Below, in pieces: positions 7,888 through 19,405 of a DNA stretch of 42,565 nucleotides. The translations under genes and the position numbers were made by a program. The stretch lies in IMG/VR virus record IMGVR_UViG_2654588006_000002. One strand, written 5' to 3'. The notes under the pieces were generated by a model. That model was not told the origin of the DNA, did no database searches, and saw nothing but the letters and a program-made list of their open reading frames with translations. Every line of letters starts with the position of its first letter. The first letter of the stretch is position 1. Source of the stretch: a virus (Duplodnaviria > Heunggongvirae > Uroviricota > Caudoviricetes).

Positions 7888-8896
7888 AAGGGTGAAAACC
7901 GGCAGTTCGTCCAGTAAGTCAGTATTGACCTGGCTTGCTGATATGTGCGGTGCCGATTTGTGTGCATACCCGTCTGTATCTGCACTGGCAGAAGTAACGG
8001 AACTGAACAAAAAGACTGTGCAGGACAGCTTACGACACCTGATGGAGATTGGGTTAATTGTTGATACCGGTGAGAGAAAAGGCCGAACAAAGCAAATCGT
8101 GGTGTACCGACTTATCGGTGTAGAAGAAAGCGTTGCCGAGCCTGAATACACCCAAAAACGGGAGTCTTTAAAGGTGGGTAAAATTGGTGCTGTTAATAAA
8201 AACAGTACCGAAAATGGTTGTGTTTCAGCACAAAACAGACCCAAAAACGGAACTCTTAGCTGCATGGAAAATAACCAAAGACACCCAAATTTTCCATCAA
8301 AGACACCCAAAAACGGATCACGGAACCCAAAGGAACCCAAAGATCTAAACCCCACACATAACGCACGCGAGAGTGCTCCGACCAGTGAGCAGGAAGTTTT
8401 GTCGTTACAGGCAGCACTCCCTGTATTCCTAGATGGCCTGAGCGAACCCATCGGAAAATTTCCGATGACCGATAGCTGGTATCCGTCACGGGATTTTCGA
8501 CGACGGGCTGCGTTGTGGGGGATGGCTTTGCCGGAGACAGAATTTACACCTGCTGAACTTGCCGCCTTCCGGGACTACTGGGCAGCGGAGGGGAAAGTGT
8601 TTACGCAGGTTCAGTGGGAGCAGAAATTCGCCCGTCACGTAAATCACGTCAGGGCGCAGGTTAAACCAGTCAGCAAGGGGGGGAGCCATGCAGCAGCAGG
8701 TGGCACCGCATCACGGGCAGTTCAGGAAATTCGGGCAGCACGTGAGCAGTGGGAACGTGAAAACGGATTTATCAGCGACGGAAACGGCGTGGAAGCTGTG
8801 GGAACTCATGGGGGATGTTTATTCGAACCGCTGGACCCAGAAGAACGGGGTCGCACCTTCGAAGCTCTGGATTGCACAGATTGGCGCGATGACTGA
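7859..8896 (+). CDS. Replication initiation protein, N-terminal HTH and C-terminal DnaT-like domain (O-like)
   Basis: ATG at 7859 with AGGGG RBS; MSIDALRWAKRVKTGSSSSKSVLTWLADMCG... is the HTH type common in lambdoid replication proteins; a DnaT-like segment near the C-terminus. Confidence 0.7.
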   Translation: MSIDALRWAKRVKTGSSSSKSVLTWLADMCGADLCAYPSVSALAEVTELNKKTVQDSLRHLMEIGLIVDTGERKGRTKQIVVYRLIGVEESVAEPEYTQKRESLKVGKIGAVNKNSTENGCVSAQNRPKNGTLSCMENNQRHPNFPSKTPKNGSRNPKEPKDLNPTHNARESAPTSEQEVLSLQAALPVFLDGLSEPIGKFPMTDSWYPSRDFRRRAALWGMALPETEFTPAELAAFRDYWAAEGKVFTQVQWEQKFARHVNHVRAQVKPVSKGGSHAAAGGTASRAVQEIRAAREQWERENGFISDGNGVEAVGTHGGCLFEPLDPEERGRTFEALDCTDWRDD

Positions 8897-10067: not shown

Positions 10068-11381
10068 ATGTTTGTTCAATTTTCTTTTAAAAATTATTTG
10101 TCGTTTAAAGATGAATCAACTCTATCGATGCTTGCCGCGAAAATTAAGTCTAAAGATAAAGGTTTAGATAAACGCGCGGTGTTTAATGCTTTTCCTGATG
10201 TTGATCTTTTAAAAGCAGCCGTTATATATGGTGCAAATGGAAGTGGAAAAAGCAATATCTTTTCTGCTTTATCTTTCATGAAGAGAATGGTGATCAATTC
10301 TTCAAAAGAATCTCAAGCAGATGAAGATATAAATGTTCTTCCATTTAAGTTAAATCCAAGGTTTGAGGATGAGCCTTCGGCTTTTGAAATGATATTTATA
10401 ATTAATAACAAACTTTACGAGTATACGTTTGCTGCTGTTCGAAATAAAATCACATCAGAAACATTATCTGTAATCGAAAAGAACAGAGATGAAGTGATTT
10501 TGTTCGAGAGAAATATGAAAGAAATAAAGGTACACAAACAGTTCAAAGAAGGTATTGGTTTAGAAAAAAGAACCAGGAAAAATGCGTTGTTCTTATCTGT
10601 CTGTGCTAATTTTGATGGCGAGGTATCTAAATCGGTAATTAGATGGTTTAGAAAAATTAGAGTTATTCAAGGTATGAGTGACATAGGTTATCTGCCATTT
10701 ACTGTGAAACTTTTGGATGATGATAATAAACGTAAAAAAATAAAATCAATTATTGATATGTTCGATCTCGATATTGTCAATATATCTAAGAGCCAAATTC
10801 AGCAGACAGAGAAAAAAGAAAATGAGCTTTTAGATGCGATATTTTCAACTATAAAAAAAGATTCAAGATTTAAAAATGTGTCTTTACCTCAGTCTAATCC
10901 ACTAGGTATCTCAACTACCCATAACCGTTTCAATGACGAAGGTGTTTTTGTAGATACAATTAATTTTGAGTTAAATGAAAACGAATCTGAAGGAACAAAA
11001 AAGCTCATTGCATTGGCTGGCCCTTTAATGGATACCTTTGACAACTCATATATATTGTTTATCGATGAGTTTGATGCAAGGCTTCATCCTTTGATTACTA
11101 AACAAATTGTTAGGATGTTCAATAGTTTAGATATCAATAAAAATAATGCGCAATTGGTAGTCGCAACGCATGATACAAATCTTTTAGATAAAGATGAGTT
11201 ACGTAGAGATCAGATATGGTTTGCGGAAAAGGACTCATTGGGTGGGTCGCATTTAAAACAACTAGTTGAATATAAAGTTAGGAACGACGCATCTTATCGA
11301 AAAGGGTATTTTGAAGGCGATTTTGGCGCTATTCCTATGTTGGGTGAGCCAGATATAATTTTTGATTCAGAATTAAATTAA
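10068..11381 (+). CDS. AAA_21/ABC-type ATPase (AbiLi-like), 437 aa
   Basis: GGAGG RBS 5 nt before ATG 10068; Walker A GANGSGKSN; signature-like ESEGTKK; Walker B ILFIDEFDARLHP; H-loop VVATHD; strongly AT-rich coding sequence. Confidence 0.85.
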   Translation: MFVQFSFKNYLSFKDESTLSMLAAKIKSKDKGLDKRAVFNAFPDVDLLKAAVIYGANGSGKSNIFSALSFMKRMVINSSKESQADEDINVLPFKLNPRFEDEPSAFEMIFIINNKLYEYTFAAVRNKITSETLSVIEKNRDEVILFERNMKEIKVHKQFKEGIGLEKRTRKNALFLSVCANFDGEVSKSVIRWFRKIRVIQGMSDIGYLPFTVKLLDDDNKRKKIKSIIDMFDLDIVNISKSQIQQTEKKENELLDAIFSTIKKDSRFKNVSLPQSNPLGISTTHNRFNDEGVFVDTINFELNENESEGTKKLIALAGPLMDTFDNSYILFIDEFDARLHPLITKQIVRMFNSLDINKNNAQLVVATHDTNLLDKDELRRDQIWFAEKDSLGGSHLKQLVEYKVRNDASYRKGYFEGDFGAIPMLGEPDIIFDSELN

Positions 11382-14948: not shown

Positions 14949-15308
14949 ATGCGTATAGAGTTTGTTTTGCCTTACCCGCCAACGGTGAACACCTACTGGC
15001 GGCGTCGTGGCAGCACATATTTTGTATCAAAAGTCGGTGAGCGTTATCGCCGTGATGTGGCGCTTATTGTTCGCCAGCAGCAACTGAAATTAAACCTGTC
15101 CGGAAGGCTGGCGATAAAGATTATTGCAGAGCCACCGGATAAGCGCCGTCGTGACCTGGACAATATCCTGAAGGCACCACTGGATGCGCTGACGCATGCC
15201 GGACTACTTATAGACGACGAGCAGTTTGATGAAATCAATATTGTGCGCGGTCAGCTCGTTCCTGGTGGGCGGCTGGGGATAAAAATCACAGAACTGGAGT
15301 GCGCATGA
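14949..15308 (+). CDS. rusA: Holliday junction resolvase RusA
   Basis: MRIEFVLPYPPTVNTYWRRRG...RRDLDNILKAPLDALTHAGLLIDDEQ, classic RusA. Confidence 0.9.
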   Translation: MRIEFVLPYPPTVNTYWRRRGSTYFVSKVGERYRRDVALIVRQQQLKLNLSGRLAIKIIAEPPDKRRRDLDNILKAPLDALTHAGLLIDDEQFDEINIVRGQLVPGGRLGIKITELECA

Positions 15309-15994
15309 ATAACCAGTATTTACAGTTTGTGCGTGAGCAGCTCATTATCGCCACCGCTGATTTGAGTGGGGCAACAAAAGGTCAGCTTGAAGCCTGGCAG
15401 GAGAATGCCATGTTCGATACAGGGCGTTACAGGCGAAAAAAAATCCGGTACCGCGATGAAGTGACTGGAAAAATGATAACGCGGGATAATCCACCAATCC
15501 CGGGAAAACAATCACTGGCGAATGGCTCATCAATTGCCCTGGTCAGCCCGGTTGAGTTTTCGACATCATCATGGCGGCGGGCTTTGCTGTCTCTTGAAGA
15601 GCATCATAAAGCCTGGTTGTTGTGGTGTTACGGCGAGAGTATTTGTTGGGAATATCAGATCGCGATAACACAGTGGGCGTGGAATGAATTTAATACTCAA
15701 TCCGGTACCAGAAAAATTGCAGGGAAAACGCAGGAACGCCTGAAAAAATTAATCTGGCTGGCGGCGCAGGCAGTAAAAGCAGAACTTTTTGGTGGGGAAG
15801 GTTATGAATACCAGGAGCTGGCATTACTGGCGGGAGTGACAACTAAAAACTGGTCCAAAACATTTACTCGTCACTGGGTTGCAATGAAACACATTTTTCA
15901 ACGACTGGATAGTGAGGCTTTATTGTTTGTAATGAGAACACGTTCAAAACAAAAGGCGGCATTTTCAAAGCAAAGTGTTGCAAAAGTAGATTGA
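15305..15994 (+). CDS. Late-gene antitermination protein Q-like
   Basis: ATG overlaps the rusA stop (ATGA); directly upstream of the tR'-like terminator, tRNAs and lysis genes. Confidence 0.7.
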   Translation: MNNQYLQFVREQLIIATADLSGATKGQLEAWQENAMFDTGRYRRKKIRYRDEVTGKMITRDNPPIPGKQSLANGSSIALVSPVEFSTSSWRRALLSLEEHHKAWLLWCYGESICWEYQIAITQWAWNEFNTQSGTRKIAGKTQERLKKLIWLAAQAVKAELFGGEGYEYQELALLAGVTTKNWSKTFTRHWVAMKHIFQRLDSEALLFVMRTRSKQKAAFSKQSVAKVD

Positions 15995-16204: not shown

Positions 16205-16280
16205 GGCCCTTTAGCTCAGTGGTGAGAGCGAGCGACTCATAATCGCCAGGTCGCTGGTTCAAATCCAGCAAGGGCCACCA
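16205..16280 (+). tRNA. tRNA with CAU anticodon, tRNA-Ile2 (lysidine) type or Met
   Basis: GGCCCTTTAGCTCAGTGGTGAGAGCGAGCGACTCATAATCGCCAGGTCGCTGGTTCAAATCCAGCAAGGGCCACCA; 7-bp acceptor stem, U8, loop CTCATAA; resembles E. coli ileX-type tRNA from memory. Confidence 0.85.
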
Positions 16281-16281
16281 A

Positions 16282-16358
16282 CCGTCACCAGTTCATCAGG
16301 AAAGAGCGTCAACCCTTTAAGTTGAGTGTGCGAGGTTCGAGTCCCCGGTGGCGGTCCA
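16282..16358 (+). tRNA. Atypical tRNA-like gene (anticodon-loop CCTTTAA, UUU/Lys-like; C1, C8, C33), possibly a pseudo-tRNA
   Basis: Folds by eye as a cloverleaf (acceptor CCGTCAC/GTGGCGG with G-U, anticodon stem TCAAC/GTTGA, TPsiC GGTTCGAGTCC, 3' CCA) but lacks the near-invariant U8 and U33. Confidence 0.45.
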
Positions 16359-16360
16359 GT

Positions 16361-16436
<76 letters not shown>

Positions 16437-16439
16437 TAT

Positions 16440-16514
<75 letters not shown>

Positions 16515-16721: not shown

Positions 16722-16745
16722 GCCCGCTTTTGCGGGCTTTTCTTT
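16722..16745 (+). terminator. Intrinsic terminator-like hairpin upstream of the holin
   Basis: GCCCGC-TTTT-GCGGGC followed by TTTTCTTTT. Confidence 0.5.
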
Positions 16746-16806: not shown

Positions 16807-17022
16807 ATGAAATCCATGGACAAAATTTCAACGGGCATTGCCTATGGCACCTCCGCAGGCAGTGCTGGCTACTGGTTTTTACAGTGGCTTGATCAGGTCA
16901 GTCCGTCACAGTGGGCTGCGATTGGTGTACTGGGGAGTCTGGTTCTGGGCTTCCTGACTTATCTGACAAATCTGTACTTCAAAATCAGAGAAGACAAGCG
17001 TAAGGCTGCACGGGGAGAGTAA
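16807..17022 (+). CDS. S: Phage-21-type pinholin/antiholin S21 (dual start MKSMDK)
   Basis: [71 protein letters not shown], near-identical to S21 as recalled. Confidence 0.9.
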
Positions 17023-17026
17023 TTCA

Positions 17027-17377
17027 ATGACTCAAAACTATGAACTGATTGTGAAAGGGATCCGCAATTTTGAGAATAAAGTTACGGTAACTTTAGCGTT
17101 ACGGGACAAAAAACGCTTTGACGGTGAAATTTTTGACCTGGACATCTCGCTGGACCGTGTTGAAGGTGCCGCGCTGGGGTTTTATGAGGCAGCAGCCAGA
17201 AGGAGCATCAGACAGGTCTTCCTGGATGTTGCTGCCGGGTTATGTGAAGGGGATGAGCAGTCGCCGGAAAAGCGCCCCGTAATTTTAGAGGCGCAGAATG
17301 TGTGGATAACCTACAAAGGAAAGCTACCAGGAAGAATTACTGGTTCTCTGAAGACTCCTCCGGAATCACAACCTTAA
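17027..17377 (+). CDS. Hypothetical soluble protein inserted between holin and endolysin
   Basis: 116-aa ORF, ATG 5 nt after the S stop with GGGGAGAG RBS; no TM segment; no recognisable motif. Confidence 0.5.
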   Translation: MTQNYELIVKGIRNFENKVTVTLALRDKKRFDGEIFDLDISLDRVEGAALGFYEAAARRSIRQVFLDVAAGLCEGDEQSPEKRPVILEAQNVWITYKGKLPGRITGSLKTPPESQP

Positions 17378-17440
17378 GTCACTGACCGGAACAGATAAAC
17401 CTGTCCGTGGGCAGAAACCGATAAATCCTGATAAATATCC

Positions 17441-17974
17441 ATGAACGCAAAAATCAGATACGGCCTGTCGGCTGCCGTTCTGGCACTGATTGCCGTCGGT
17501 GCGCCCGCGCCTGATATTCTCGACCAGTTTCTGGATGAAAAAGAAGGTAACCACACAACGGCATACCGCGATGGTTCCGGCATCTGGACCATCTGTCGGG
17601 GTGCCACGATGGTGGATGGAAAACCCGTTTTTCCCGGTATGAAACTGTCGAAGGAAAAATGCGACCAGGTCAACGCCATTGAGCGTGATAAGGCGCTGGC
17701 ATGGGTGGAGCGCAATATTAAAGTACCACTGACCGAACCACAAAAAGCGGGTATCGCGTCATTTTGTCCCTATAACATTGGCCCCGGTAAGTGTTTTCCA
17801 TCGACGTTTTATAAGCGGCTGAATGCTGGTGATCGTAAGGGCGCATGCGAGGCGATTCGCTGGTGGATAAAAGATGGTGGGCGCGATTGCCGCATACGTT
17901 CAAATAACTGCTATGGACAGGTTATTCGTCGTGACCAGGAAAGCGCATTAGCCTGTTGGGGAATAGATCAGTGA
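17441..17974 (+). CDS. R: SAR endolysin (lysozyme, phage-21 R type)
   Basis: N-terminal signal-anchor-release segment [18 protein letters not shown] followed by a lysozyme-like domain ([20 protein letters not shown]...). Confidence 0.85.
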
Positions 17975-18438
17975 GCAGAGTCGCCGCGATTATTTATGCT
18001 CTGGTTATCTGCATCATCGTCTGCCTGTCGTGGGCGGTCAATCATTACCGTGATAACGCCATCACCTACAAAGAACAGCGTGATAAAAAAGTCAGTGAGC
18101 TGAAGCAGCTGACCGCCACCATCGCTGACATGCAGCAGCGTCAGCGTGATGTTGCTGCGCTCGATGCAAAGTACTCGAGAGAATTAGCCAATGCGAAAGC
18201 TGAAAATGAAACTCTGCGCGCTGATGTTGCCGCTGGTCGTAAGCGCCTGCGGGTCAATGCCAGTTGCTCCGCAGCCGTGCGTGAAGCCACCGGACCCACC
18301 AGCGTGGATAATGCAACCAGCCCCAGACTGGCAGACACCGCTGAACGGGATTATTTCACCCTCAGAGAACGGTTGATGACGATGCAGAAGCAACTGGAAG
18401 GGGCACAGCTATACATTCGTGAGCAATGTCTCAGATAA
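17971..18438 (+). CDS. Rz: i-spanin Rz
   Basis: GTG start overlaps the R stop (GTGA); N-terminal TM segment [19 protein letters not shown] then coiled-coil-like sequence. Confidence 0.8.
18191..18376 (+). CDS. Rz1: o-spanin Rz1 lipoprotein embedded in Rz (+1 frame)
   Basis: [22 protein letters not shown] lipobox; proline-rich [32 protein letters not shown] resembles lambda Rz1. Confidence 0.8.
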
Positions 18439-18593: not shown

Positions 18594-18860
18594 GTGAACG
18601 TAGAAAACCTAAGTAACGCACATTACATCTATAACGAGATGAAAGAGCTACAGCGACAGAAAGGTATACTGGAAAGTGGTGCAGGGCTTGGTGTGACAAT
18701 CCAGTCTGCCTATCAATATAGTGCTTTTCTTGAGGCCATACGCCCGCATGCAGTTGCTGAACTTAACAGCCGTATTGAGGAAAAGAAATCCGCGCTGGTT
18801 AATTTGGGTGCTTCCTTCTCTATATACGAGCATAATAAGGCGGGTTGGAAACCCGCCTAA
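18594..18860 (+). CDS. Hypothetical protein
   Basis: 88-aa ORF with GTG start and weak RBS; convergent with the YfbU-like gene. Confidence 0.3.
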   Translation: MNVENLSNAHYIYNEMKELQRQKGILESGAGLGVTIQSAYQYSAFLEAIRPHAVAELNSRIEEKKSALVNLGASFSIYEHNKAGWKPA

Positions 18861-18865
18861 AGCAC

Positions 18866-19405
18866 TTAGAAACTGCGTGGAGCTGTGGAAAGAATGGATG
18901 CCAGTTCTTCCTTCGATAAATCCCAGCTTCGATTTACAGCGTCAATTTTCTTAAACTCATCAAGCATTGCGTTATAGAGATGTTCTGTACGTGAATGAGT
19001 ATTGGCAATGGGCTGTTTCTGTTCGGGGAAGCGATCAATTTTCTGATATGCCTCAATGATACTGAAGTAATCGCATTCATTATTACCGTCGAAACCTGGG
19101 AGCTGAATTGCCCCATCATGTATTTTTAGATGATGGTCACGGACTAATTCTTTTTGCTCGTCATCACTAAGTTTCCTGAAAGCATTGGAAAGTCCGCGAT
19201 ACATATTCAAGACAGCAGTAACAAAATCACGATCTTCTTTACTTGGTTCGTCAACATCCAAATGTGAATATTCGGCCTTGATAACCCAATCATTACCAGA
19301 TGACACAGCATATTTAACAAGCTGTGGATCAATATCAGTTTCGATACCTAGGTGGATGGCAATGTCACATAACAAAATGGTATTGATTTTATCTTTAATA
19401 TCCAT
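18866..19405 (-). CDS. YfbU-like (UPF0304 family) protein, minus-strand moron
   Basis: 179-aa ORF; segments VTAVLNMYRGLSNAF, LPGFDGNNECDYF and WDLSKEELASILST align by eye with E. coli YfbU blocks (IIDIMEMYHALHVSW, FLGFDAATEARYLGY, YHLSANEINQIINA), from memory. Confidence 0.5.
   Translation of the reverse strand: MDIKDKINTILLCDIAIHLGIETDIDPQLVKYAVSSGNDWVIKAEYSHLDVDEPSKEDRDFVTAVLNMYRGLSNAFRKLSDDEQKELVRDHHLKIHDGAIQLPGFDGNNECDYFSIIEAYQKIDRFPEQKQPIANTHSRTEHLYNAMLDEFKKIDAVNRSWDLSKEELASILSTAPRSF

Follow-up and report, generated by a model that had tools for sequence, protein, structure and literature searches.

A YdfR-family gene between the pinholin and endolysin genes of a lambdoid prophage: a probable optional accessory gene of the late operon

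The 42,565-nucleotide stretch of DNA analyzed here (IMG/VR virus record IMGVR_UViG_2654588006_000002, Caudoviricetes; hereafter, the window) is a lambdoid prophage that lies beside tRNA-Ser/mtfA and carries a Q antiterminator gene, HK97-type head genes and lambda-type tail genes. Between its S21-type pinholin gene (S) and its signal-anchor-release (SAR) endolysin gene (R), an ATG-start open reading frame (ORF) of 116 codons occupies positions 17027-17377 of the plus strand (Table 1). An earlier reading made from the letters of the sequence alone did not recognize this ORF, and proposed that it modulates lysis timing or is a late-expressed moron. The ORF and its two neighbors (PF04971 and PF00959) are present as that reading described them. 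From its sequence, the ORF is almost certainly a member of the YdfR (DUF1327) family, and comparison of related cassettes makes it likely that the gene is a dispensable accessory gene and not a core component of the lysis machinery. Taken as a whole, the reading we somewhat favor makes ydfR an optional accessory member of the late operon, with a product that would act on RNase E, RNA, or both.

The ORF product matches Pfam PF07041 (DUF1327) over residues 1-112 with 141.6 bits (cutoff 25; E 9.2e-42), and matches phrog_406 and phrog_2091 with E ~1e-67, both in the category function unknown. Over residues 1-74, 59 of 74 positions (80%) are identical to Escherichia coli K-12 YdfR (E 1e-45), while the C-termini cannot be aligned. 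Many complete E. coli genomes have loci with 99.9% identity to the 1.8 kb cassette, and the consecutive RefSeq labels there are "class II holin," "YdfR family protein," "lysozyme," and "lysis protein." The cassette is also 99.7% identical to phage vB_EcoS-689R5, in which the gene is annotated "putative YdfR family protein," and several phage records use this family name. The DUF1327 match, hundreds of homologues, and a ratio of nonsynonymous to synonymous substitution rates (dN/dS, or omega) of 0.23-0.30 for the core in well-diverged pairs indicate that the ORF is a genuine gene and not a frame left open by chance. These values correspond to moderate purifying selection; those of S and R are 0.05-0.11. 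The finding is not new: Pfam, PHROGs, RefSeq, and the annotation of K-12 already list the gene, its family name, and its place between holin and endolysin.

Searches beyond the family returned little. NCBIfam holds no model that matches the ORF product, a BFVD search returned nothing, and a sequence-profile search of the PDB yielded a chance-level match to CENP-P alone (E 0.33). A profile search run exhaustively against 1.84 billion representatives gave only 85 relatives, and thus no link to a characterized superfamily. Across GTDB species genomes, close relatives were confined to Escherichia and Shigella, except for two contigs of metagenome-assembled genomes, labeled Veillonella parvula and "Bacillota bacterium" (loci L006 and L008). 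One NCBI protein (P0071) is labeled Enterococcus faecalis. These two loci and the Enterococcus protein are probably mis-binned or contaminating E. coli contigs.

The closest known relative is the name-giving protein of the family, YdfR of the K-12 cryptic prophage Qin (b1555, P76160), which belongs to the same PF07041 family and to the same PHROGs, 406 and 2091, as the window protein. The Qin gene order (essQ, 4 nt, ydfR, rrrQ, rzpQ/rzoQ) is that of the window, down to the 4-nt spacing after the holin gene, and the window proteins share 82% amino acid identity with EssQ and 94% with RrrQ. The window gene thus stands in a Qin-type context, with class II holin, ydfR, and lysozyme in sequence within a lambdoid prophage. 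Two differences separate the loci. K-12 ydfR overlaps rrrQ (ATGA), whereas a 63-nt gap separates the two genes in the window, and the C-terminal 40 residues of the window protein are unrelated to those of K-12 YdfR, carrying instead a "SPEKRPVILEAQNVWITYKGKLPGRITGSLKTPPESQP" module that is common to O157-type alleles.

The sequence-only reading had implied that an insert between S and R is rare or novel, and this could not be upheld. When DNA queries were run by distant BLAST against 5426 complete E. coli genomes, ydfR-like DNA was found in 4348 genomes at 8614 places, S21-type holin DNA in 5165 genomes at 16886 places, and RrrQ-type lysozyme (R177) DNA in 4428 genomes at 11109 places. By place, a ydfR homologue is present in about half of the E. 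coli S21-type loci, including K-12 Qin, and in about three quarters of the RrrQ-type loci. Because of these counts, the order S-ydfR-R must be regarded as a standard architecture and not as an oddity. Most E. coli genomes therefore carry the gene, as do many Shiga-toxin phages, and its operon is the one that governs lysis and the release of toxin.

Related cassettes also exist in a form that omits the gene. Those of phage 21, DLP12 (essD-rrrD), an Stx2f prophage, and phage 933W resemble the window in having an S21-type dual-start pinholin, a SAR lysozyme, and Rz/Rz1, but they have no gene between S and R, and their R overlaps the S stop in the rrrD type and starts 4 nt beyond it in 933W. In 933W, whose record is a complete phage genome, the S stop is followed after 4 nt by the start of an RrrQ-type R of 177 amino acids (R177), as in the window, although an ant gene lies between R and Rz, unlike in the window. 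In DLP12, essD overlaps rrrD with no gene between them. Identity between the Stx2f prophage and the window is 97% over the interval that begins at the tRNA genes and closes with the final base of the S stop. Where the window then has ydfR and R177, the prophage has an RrrD-type R165 that overlaps S and whose protein is only 34% identical to that of the window R; homology is regained at Rz, with 94% identity. The module boundary between the two is sharp (window 17024-17968 against L033 2218-2707). The comparison of S21/R21-type cassettes that the sequence-only reading had called for thus gave a divided result, with the insert carried in many E. coli genomes and missing from 933W, DLP12, and the Stx2f prophage. 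Presence/absence polymorphism between otherwise homologous genomes is evident both at the Stx2f breakpoint and at the 933W junction, and co-occurrence of ydfR with a holin or endolysin partner is not obligatory, since S21-type loci outnumber ydfR about 2:1 and both 933W and the Stx2f prophage do without it. Because these cassettes lack the gene, ydfR appears dispensable for the working of such S, R, and spanin proteins.

This polymorphism brings the suggestion of a late-expressed moron near the comparative picture. The other marks of a moron were not seen: no promoter-like or terminator-like site was found flanking 17027-17377, and the G+C content of ydfR (0.46-0.50) is similar to that of the neighboring genes. 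For these reasons ydfR is better described as an operon-embedded accessory gene than as a classic moron. In the reading we favor, ydfR would be a moron-like insertion lacking transcription signals of its own, co-transcribed with S, R, and Rz/Rz1 in a Q-dependent late operon, as its position suggests, and efficiently translated from a Shine-Dalgarno sequence that lies within the 3' end of S. Its product would be a small soluble cytoplasmic protein of enterobacterial lambdoid (siphovirus-type) prophages that stands outside the pinholin, SAR-endolysin, and spanin machinery.

The distribution of distant homologues is consistent with this picture. Among the weak profile matches are stand-alone proteins of 72-86 amino acids that align over residues 1-72 only. 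The Citrobacter freundii DUF1327 gene lies directly 3' of the tape-measure gene, that of Sodalis ligni just 5' of tail gene L, and that of a metagenomic phage between L and K. In Cronobacter and several metagenomic phages, the gene lies between a glycosyltransferase gene and HNH/terminase genes, with an unrelated holin/GH19/Rz cassette ~2.7 kb upstream, and on one contig it follows 3' of a complete S21-R165-spanin cassette. A position between holin and lysozyme was found only in the Escherichia-type clade and in close relatives behind an HP1-type holin. Throughout, the gene points in the same direction as the late genes. This distribution fits a small accessory gene that inserts among late-operon genes, and not a factor that co-evolved with a holin or an endolysin.

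The same observations bear on the proposal that YdfR modulates lysis timing, which the sequence-only reading had drawn from the position of the gene. As a cytoplasmic regulator of the pinholin/SAR-endolysin pair, YdfR could bind the charged cytoplasmic C-terminal tail of S21, as T4 RIII acts on holin T, or could adjust how the RrrQ-type endolysin accumulates or is released. In Escherichia and Shigella loci the gene does keep strictly to the place between S and R, and it is closely packed for translation, with 4 nt separating it from S and, in K-12, an ATGA shared with rrrQ; ydfR-like and RrrQ-type R DNA occur in nearly the same set of genomes (4348 against 4428, at 8614 and 11109 places), and ydfR and R177 are swapped as a block for R165. 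However, S and R177 of the same kind occur in 933W without ydfR, about half of the S21-type loci lack the gene, and the core occurs at tail- and terminase-proximal positions in other genera, near unrelated types of holin and endolysin. Recombination breakpoints also fall within ydfR, so that its inheritance with S is not clean.

The protein itself offers no closer tie to lysis. As the sequence-only reading held, the product appears soluble, being hydrophilic (maximum Kyte-Doolittle hydropathy over 19 residues, 0.69) with no signal peptide and no transmembrane segment. It shows neither the membrane association nor the family homology expected of an antiholin or lysis regulator, and no match to a lysis-category family or known lysis accessory protein was found in Pfam, PHROGs, NCBIfam, or PADLOC. 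S moreover has an antiholin of its own by way of its dual start; in phage 21, the MKSM dual start gives rise to antiholin and holin forms. Small extra genes in or beside a lysis cassette do have precedents, and the P1 and Mu lysis systems also use a SAR endolysin. T4 RIII, P1 LydB, and the Mu gp25 releasin are generally known examples of such genes (PMC9239132; PMC9025707). YdfR has no detected sequence or profile similarity to lysis-category families that would join it to these regulators, lacks the membrane segment of LydB/releasin-type proteins, and, unlike RIII, LydB, and releasin-type regulators, has homologues outside lysis cassettes.

Two experimental observations on K-12 ydfR fall on either side of this question. 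The Keio deletion of ydfR was a hit in a screen for envelope leakiness with chlorophenol red-β-D-galactopyranoside (CPRG) (PMC3879167 supplements), which would agree with a role in lysis. K-12 ydfR (L001 7055-7366) overlaps the start of rrrQ, though, so read-out from the kanamycin-resistance cassette into rrrQ could produce leakiness without any function of YdfR, and we infer that the phenotype may be such a polar effect. Overproduction of YdfR, on the other hand, caused no growth defect (PMC13232886). Together with the ydfR-less relatives and the homologues outside lysis cassettes, these points make a lysis-timing regulator improbable, and position alone is no ground for calling ydfR a lysis gene.

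We return to ydfR as an optional accessory gene, for which the architecture of the protein provides the next evidence. Structure prediction for the conserved part (residues 1-76; AlphaFold2 with a deeper alignment that included distant homologues) gave a confident model, with a mean predicted local distance difference test score (pLDDT) of 89 and a predicted template modeling score of 0.76. In this model, antiparallel strands at residues 5-14, 18-27, and 34-43 precede a 25-residue helix at 50-74, and the conserved part is thus, as modeled, a β3-α domain of 72-74 residues. A Tyr53-Glu54 pair, near-invariant also among the stand-alone homologues, marks the start of the helix. The full-length model from a shallow alignment was poor, with a pLDDT of 38-45 over the C-terminal 42 residues. 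This C-terminal region is shared with O157-type YdfR and is replaced or extended in other alleles, which encode forms of 103, 104, 161, 176, 183, 206, and 287 amino acids. DNA matches within ydfR are mosaic (query bases 1-206, 124-336, 1-252, and 1-340). Together with the variable C-termini, the mosaic matches suggest that recombination brings varying tails together with a conserved N-terminal core, so that the C-terminus would be a swappable appendage. Two proteins of 170-176 amino acids in the representative library (P0186 and P0192) contain two DUF1327-like cores in tandem, and two from E. coli (P0074 and P0099) have an internal duplication of the core.

Several phage proteins modulate host RNase E, among them the T7 gp0.7 kinase, T4 Srd, and phiKZ Dip, and RapZ is a host adaptor of the enzyme. 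A recent study places K-12 YdfR near this group. A genomic two-hybrid screen recovered K-12 ydfR codons 1-72 three times, both YdfR 1-72 and full-length YdfR interacted with Rne(1-597), the catalytic N-terminal half of RNase E, in bacterial two-hybrid assays, Strep-YdfR co-eluted chromosomally FLAG-tagged Rne(1-598), and DNase-resistant nucleic acid was abundant in the Strep-YdfR eluates (Göpel et al., RNA Biol 2026; PMC13232886). The segment that interacts coincides exactly with the conserved core, over which the window allele is 80% identical to K-12 YdfR. Like RapZ, K-12 YdfR binds the N-terminal half of RNase E, and it also co-purifies RNA (PMC13232886). It has no sequence relationship with gp0.7, Srd, Dip, or RapZ, however, and ydfR is late by position, whereas T7 gp0.7 and T4 Srd are early. 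By extension from the K-12 homologue, the likeliest activity of the window protein would be binding of the catalytic half of RNase E, of RNA, or of both, with an effect on RNA metabolism in the cytoplasm at a late stage of infection. Whether RNase E or RNA is the physiological target is, by this analogy, possible but rather doubtful.

Several points weigh against our reading. The link to RNase E and RNA comes from a single study, of a homologue, under overproduction. In that study full-length YdfR gave a two-hybrid signal with one Rne construct only, the authors allowed that the RNA might have been bound by a contaminant, and YdfR overproduction altered few transcripts (PMC13232886). In Escherichia, moreover, ydfR lies essentially always between holin and RrrQ-type lysozyme and is often translationally coupled to R, as by the ATGA overlap in K-12, and this strict position and coupling would also be predicted by a lysis-linked function. 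A survey of the literature found functional work on the Qin lysis cassette or ydfR only in PMC13232886 and in screen lists; one such list is that of an ORF-overexpression streptomycin screen, in which ydfR is among the hits (PMC12924614).

A more specific proposal, which we consider unlikely, is that the DUF1327 core is a minimal module resembling a double-stranded RNA-binding domain (dsRBD) that binds RNA or RNase E and retunes host RNA decay from within the late operon. The dsRBD has an α-β-β-β-α order, whereas helix α1 is missing in the YdfR core, and the ydfR product has no match to Pfam dsrm. If this proposal were true, YdfR might protect the ~25-kb late transcript or redirect RNase E, and a host-takeover factor of very wide occurrence (~80% of E. 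coli genomes, Stx phages included) would have been overlooked because it resembles filler in a lysis cassette. The dispensability of the gene, its mobile 72-residue core, the β3-α fold, and the report on RNase E and RNA together narrow the range of useful experiments.

A secondary consequence of the presence of the gene follows from its junctions with S and R. The start of ydfR had been placed 5 nt after the S stop; the stop (TAA, 17020-17022) is followed by 4 nt (TTCA), and the ATG at 17027 begins on the fifth base. The good ribosome-binding site ascribed to the ORF is confirmed as the purine run GGGGAGAG, which lies within S. In 933W, junction alignment shows R filling the exact slot of the window ydfR and using the same S-embedded GGGGAGAG. 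The window R instead follows the 63-nt gap that the sequence-only reading had noted together with a weak ribosome-binding site, and this spacer contains no purine-rich Shine-Dalgarno sequence. In every ydfR-containing variant aligned, R has a common A/T-rich leader, ATAAATATC(C/T)ATG, again without a Shine-Dalgarno sequence, and the 3' part of the spacer (...GATAAATATCC) is conserved ahead of R in all of these variants and not in 933W. Insertion of ydfR would displace R from the S-embedded Shine-Dalgarno sequence to a leader lacking one, by which endolysin translation would probably be lowered or otherwise changed, and ydfR may in this way affect endolysin dosage in cis.

Such an effect could be the main role of the gene, whose protein would then have little function in lysis or host takeover and which would act chiefly by taking the S-embedded Shine-Dalgarno sequence and setting endolysin dosage (in K-12, through coupling of R to ydfR translation), or would be no more than a selfish or hitch-hiking passenger. 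The 933W junction and the shared leader agree with this, as do the weaker constraint on ydfR than on S and R (omega 0.23-0.6 against 0.05-0.11) and the highly variable, often truncated or fused C-termini. Purifying selection on the core is nevertheless clear in diverged pairs (omega ~0.25), and the core persists as a stand-alone protein across genera and positions, which is not expected of a pure spacer. The gap RNA has no significant structure either: the predicted fold of the 63-nt spacer was indistinguishable from that of shuffled sequences (z = -0.69), and a regulatory RNA structure at 17378-17440 was accordingly rejected. We regard a role mainly in cis, or that of a passenger, as very unlikely.

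The ydfR-R junction differs among cassettes in a further way. Between window 17367-17440 and L027 2811-3188 (strain 1943) there is an indel of ~270 bp, and the extra segment in strain 1943, which the window does not have, places a minus-strand ORF of 90 amino acids (phrog_2411) in the ydfR-R interval. In a further cassette (L021), this place is taken by an unrelated minus-strand ORF of 86 amino acids (phrog_2572), and the junction looks like an insertion hot spot. Away from lysis cassettes, a convergent gene of 94-95 amino acids (phrog_10490) follows 4-14 nt after stand-alone DUF1327 in Citrobacter, Cronobacter, and metagenomic phages (Table 1), and its products are 68% identical between genera. 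The occurrence of this pair at differing late-operon positions suggests a mobile two-gene unit. A 197-amino-acid gene after the Citrobacter pair was considered as a further member and rejected, as it encodes the distal tail protein.

YdfR could be one half of a small accessory module, serving anti-defense or exclusion or paired with an opposite-strand gene, and would then be grouped with the anti-defense or moron islands of the late region and not with RNA decay. Besides the convergent partner that shifts position between genomes, the small minus-strand ORFs at the ydfR-R junction of some E. coli cassettes would agree with this, as would neighbors that include glycosyltransferases of the "moron/host takeover" category and an Acb2/Tad1-hairpin gene ~3 kb away. 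The partner is absent from the window, however, where the ~270-bp indel removes it, and PADLOC defense models gave no match for the ORF product. K-12 ydfR is silent in the lysogen (PMC13232886), which also speaks against such a module. No kinship is detectable among the differing minus-strand ORFs that follow DUF1327 genes, and three mutually unrelated kinds of neighbor are more readily explained by an insertion hot spot than by a functional pair. We would give this possibility little credence. The Acb2/Tad1-hairpin gene, of the anti-CBASS (cyclic-oligonucleotide-based antiphage signaling system)/anti-Thoeris sponge type, lies ~3 kb 5' of the DUF1327/phrog_10490 pair in two phages (L030 314-595 and L032 243-527), and its presence marks the lysis-terminase interval of these phages as an accessory or anti-defense island.

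Table 1. Features of the lysis region of the window, and DUF1327/phrog_10490 gene pairs elsewhere.
Feature	Position	Strand	Basis or remark
Q-family gene	15299-15994		Antitermination protein Q by annotation of the matching RefSeq locus
Terminator-like hairpin (GCCCGCTTTTGCGGGC then T-run)	16722-16737	+	6 G-C pairs, perfect; ~70 nt upstream of S, 3' of tRNA cluster
S21-type class II holin (pinholin) gene S, 71 aa, MKSM dual start	16807-17022	+	PF04971, E 1.4e-35; PHROG category holin
Shine-Dalgarno GGGGAGAG, within 3' end of S	17012-17019	+	Purine run, 7-9 nt 5' of ydfR ATG
ydfR-family gene (DUF1327), 116 aa	17027-17377	+	PF07041, PHROGs, RefSeq name, dN/dS
Conserved core, codons 1-74	17027-17248	+	AlphaFold2 model, alignments, identity to K-12 YdfR
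Variable C-terminal region, codons 75-116	17249-17374	+	Alignment; pLDDT 38-45; mosaic DNA matches
Spacer of 63 nt without Shine-Dalgarno, ending ...GATAAATATCC-ATG	17378-17440	+	Sequence
RrrQ-type SAR lysozyme gene R, 177 aa	17441-17974	+	PF00959; hydrophobic Gly/Ala-rich N-terminus
Rz i-spanin gene, GTG start overlapping R stop	17971-18438	+	PF03245, E 1.6e-49; RefSeq "lysis protein" coordinates
Rz1 o-spanin ORF, embedded in Rz	18191-18376	+	ORF list
DUF1327/phrog_10490 pairs	L010 4001-4553; L019 4001-4517; L023 4001-4526; L025 4001-4529; L030 3501-4017; L032 3501-4029		

The remaining features of the locus are those of a lambdoid late region (Table 1). The hairpin upstream of S is probably a late-operon terminator that is read through by Q antitermination, as its placement suggests. 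The N-terminus of R is weakly hydrophobic and Gly/Ala-rich, with a maximum Kyte-Doolittle value of 1.87 at residues 9-27, and resembles that of SAR endolysins. A tight cluster of four tRNA genes separates the Q gene from S at 16205-16514 (ARAGORN: Met-CAT, Lys-TTT, Thr-TGT, and Gly-TCC). A near-identical RefSeq cassette in strain 2009C-3133 has two tRNAs only, annotated Ile and Thr, on which basis the CAT tRNA may be a lysidine-type tRNA-Ile, and tRNA content differs among otherwise similar prophages. On the other side of the cassette, 3' of Rz, the interval 18594-19405 holds a plus-strand ORF of 88 amino acids (phrog_5415) and a minus-strand ORF of 179 amino acids (phrog_6084; RefSeq "YfbU family protein"). 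With a low G+C content of 0.36-0.43, this interval resembles a classic opposite-strand moron between lysis and packaging genes.

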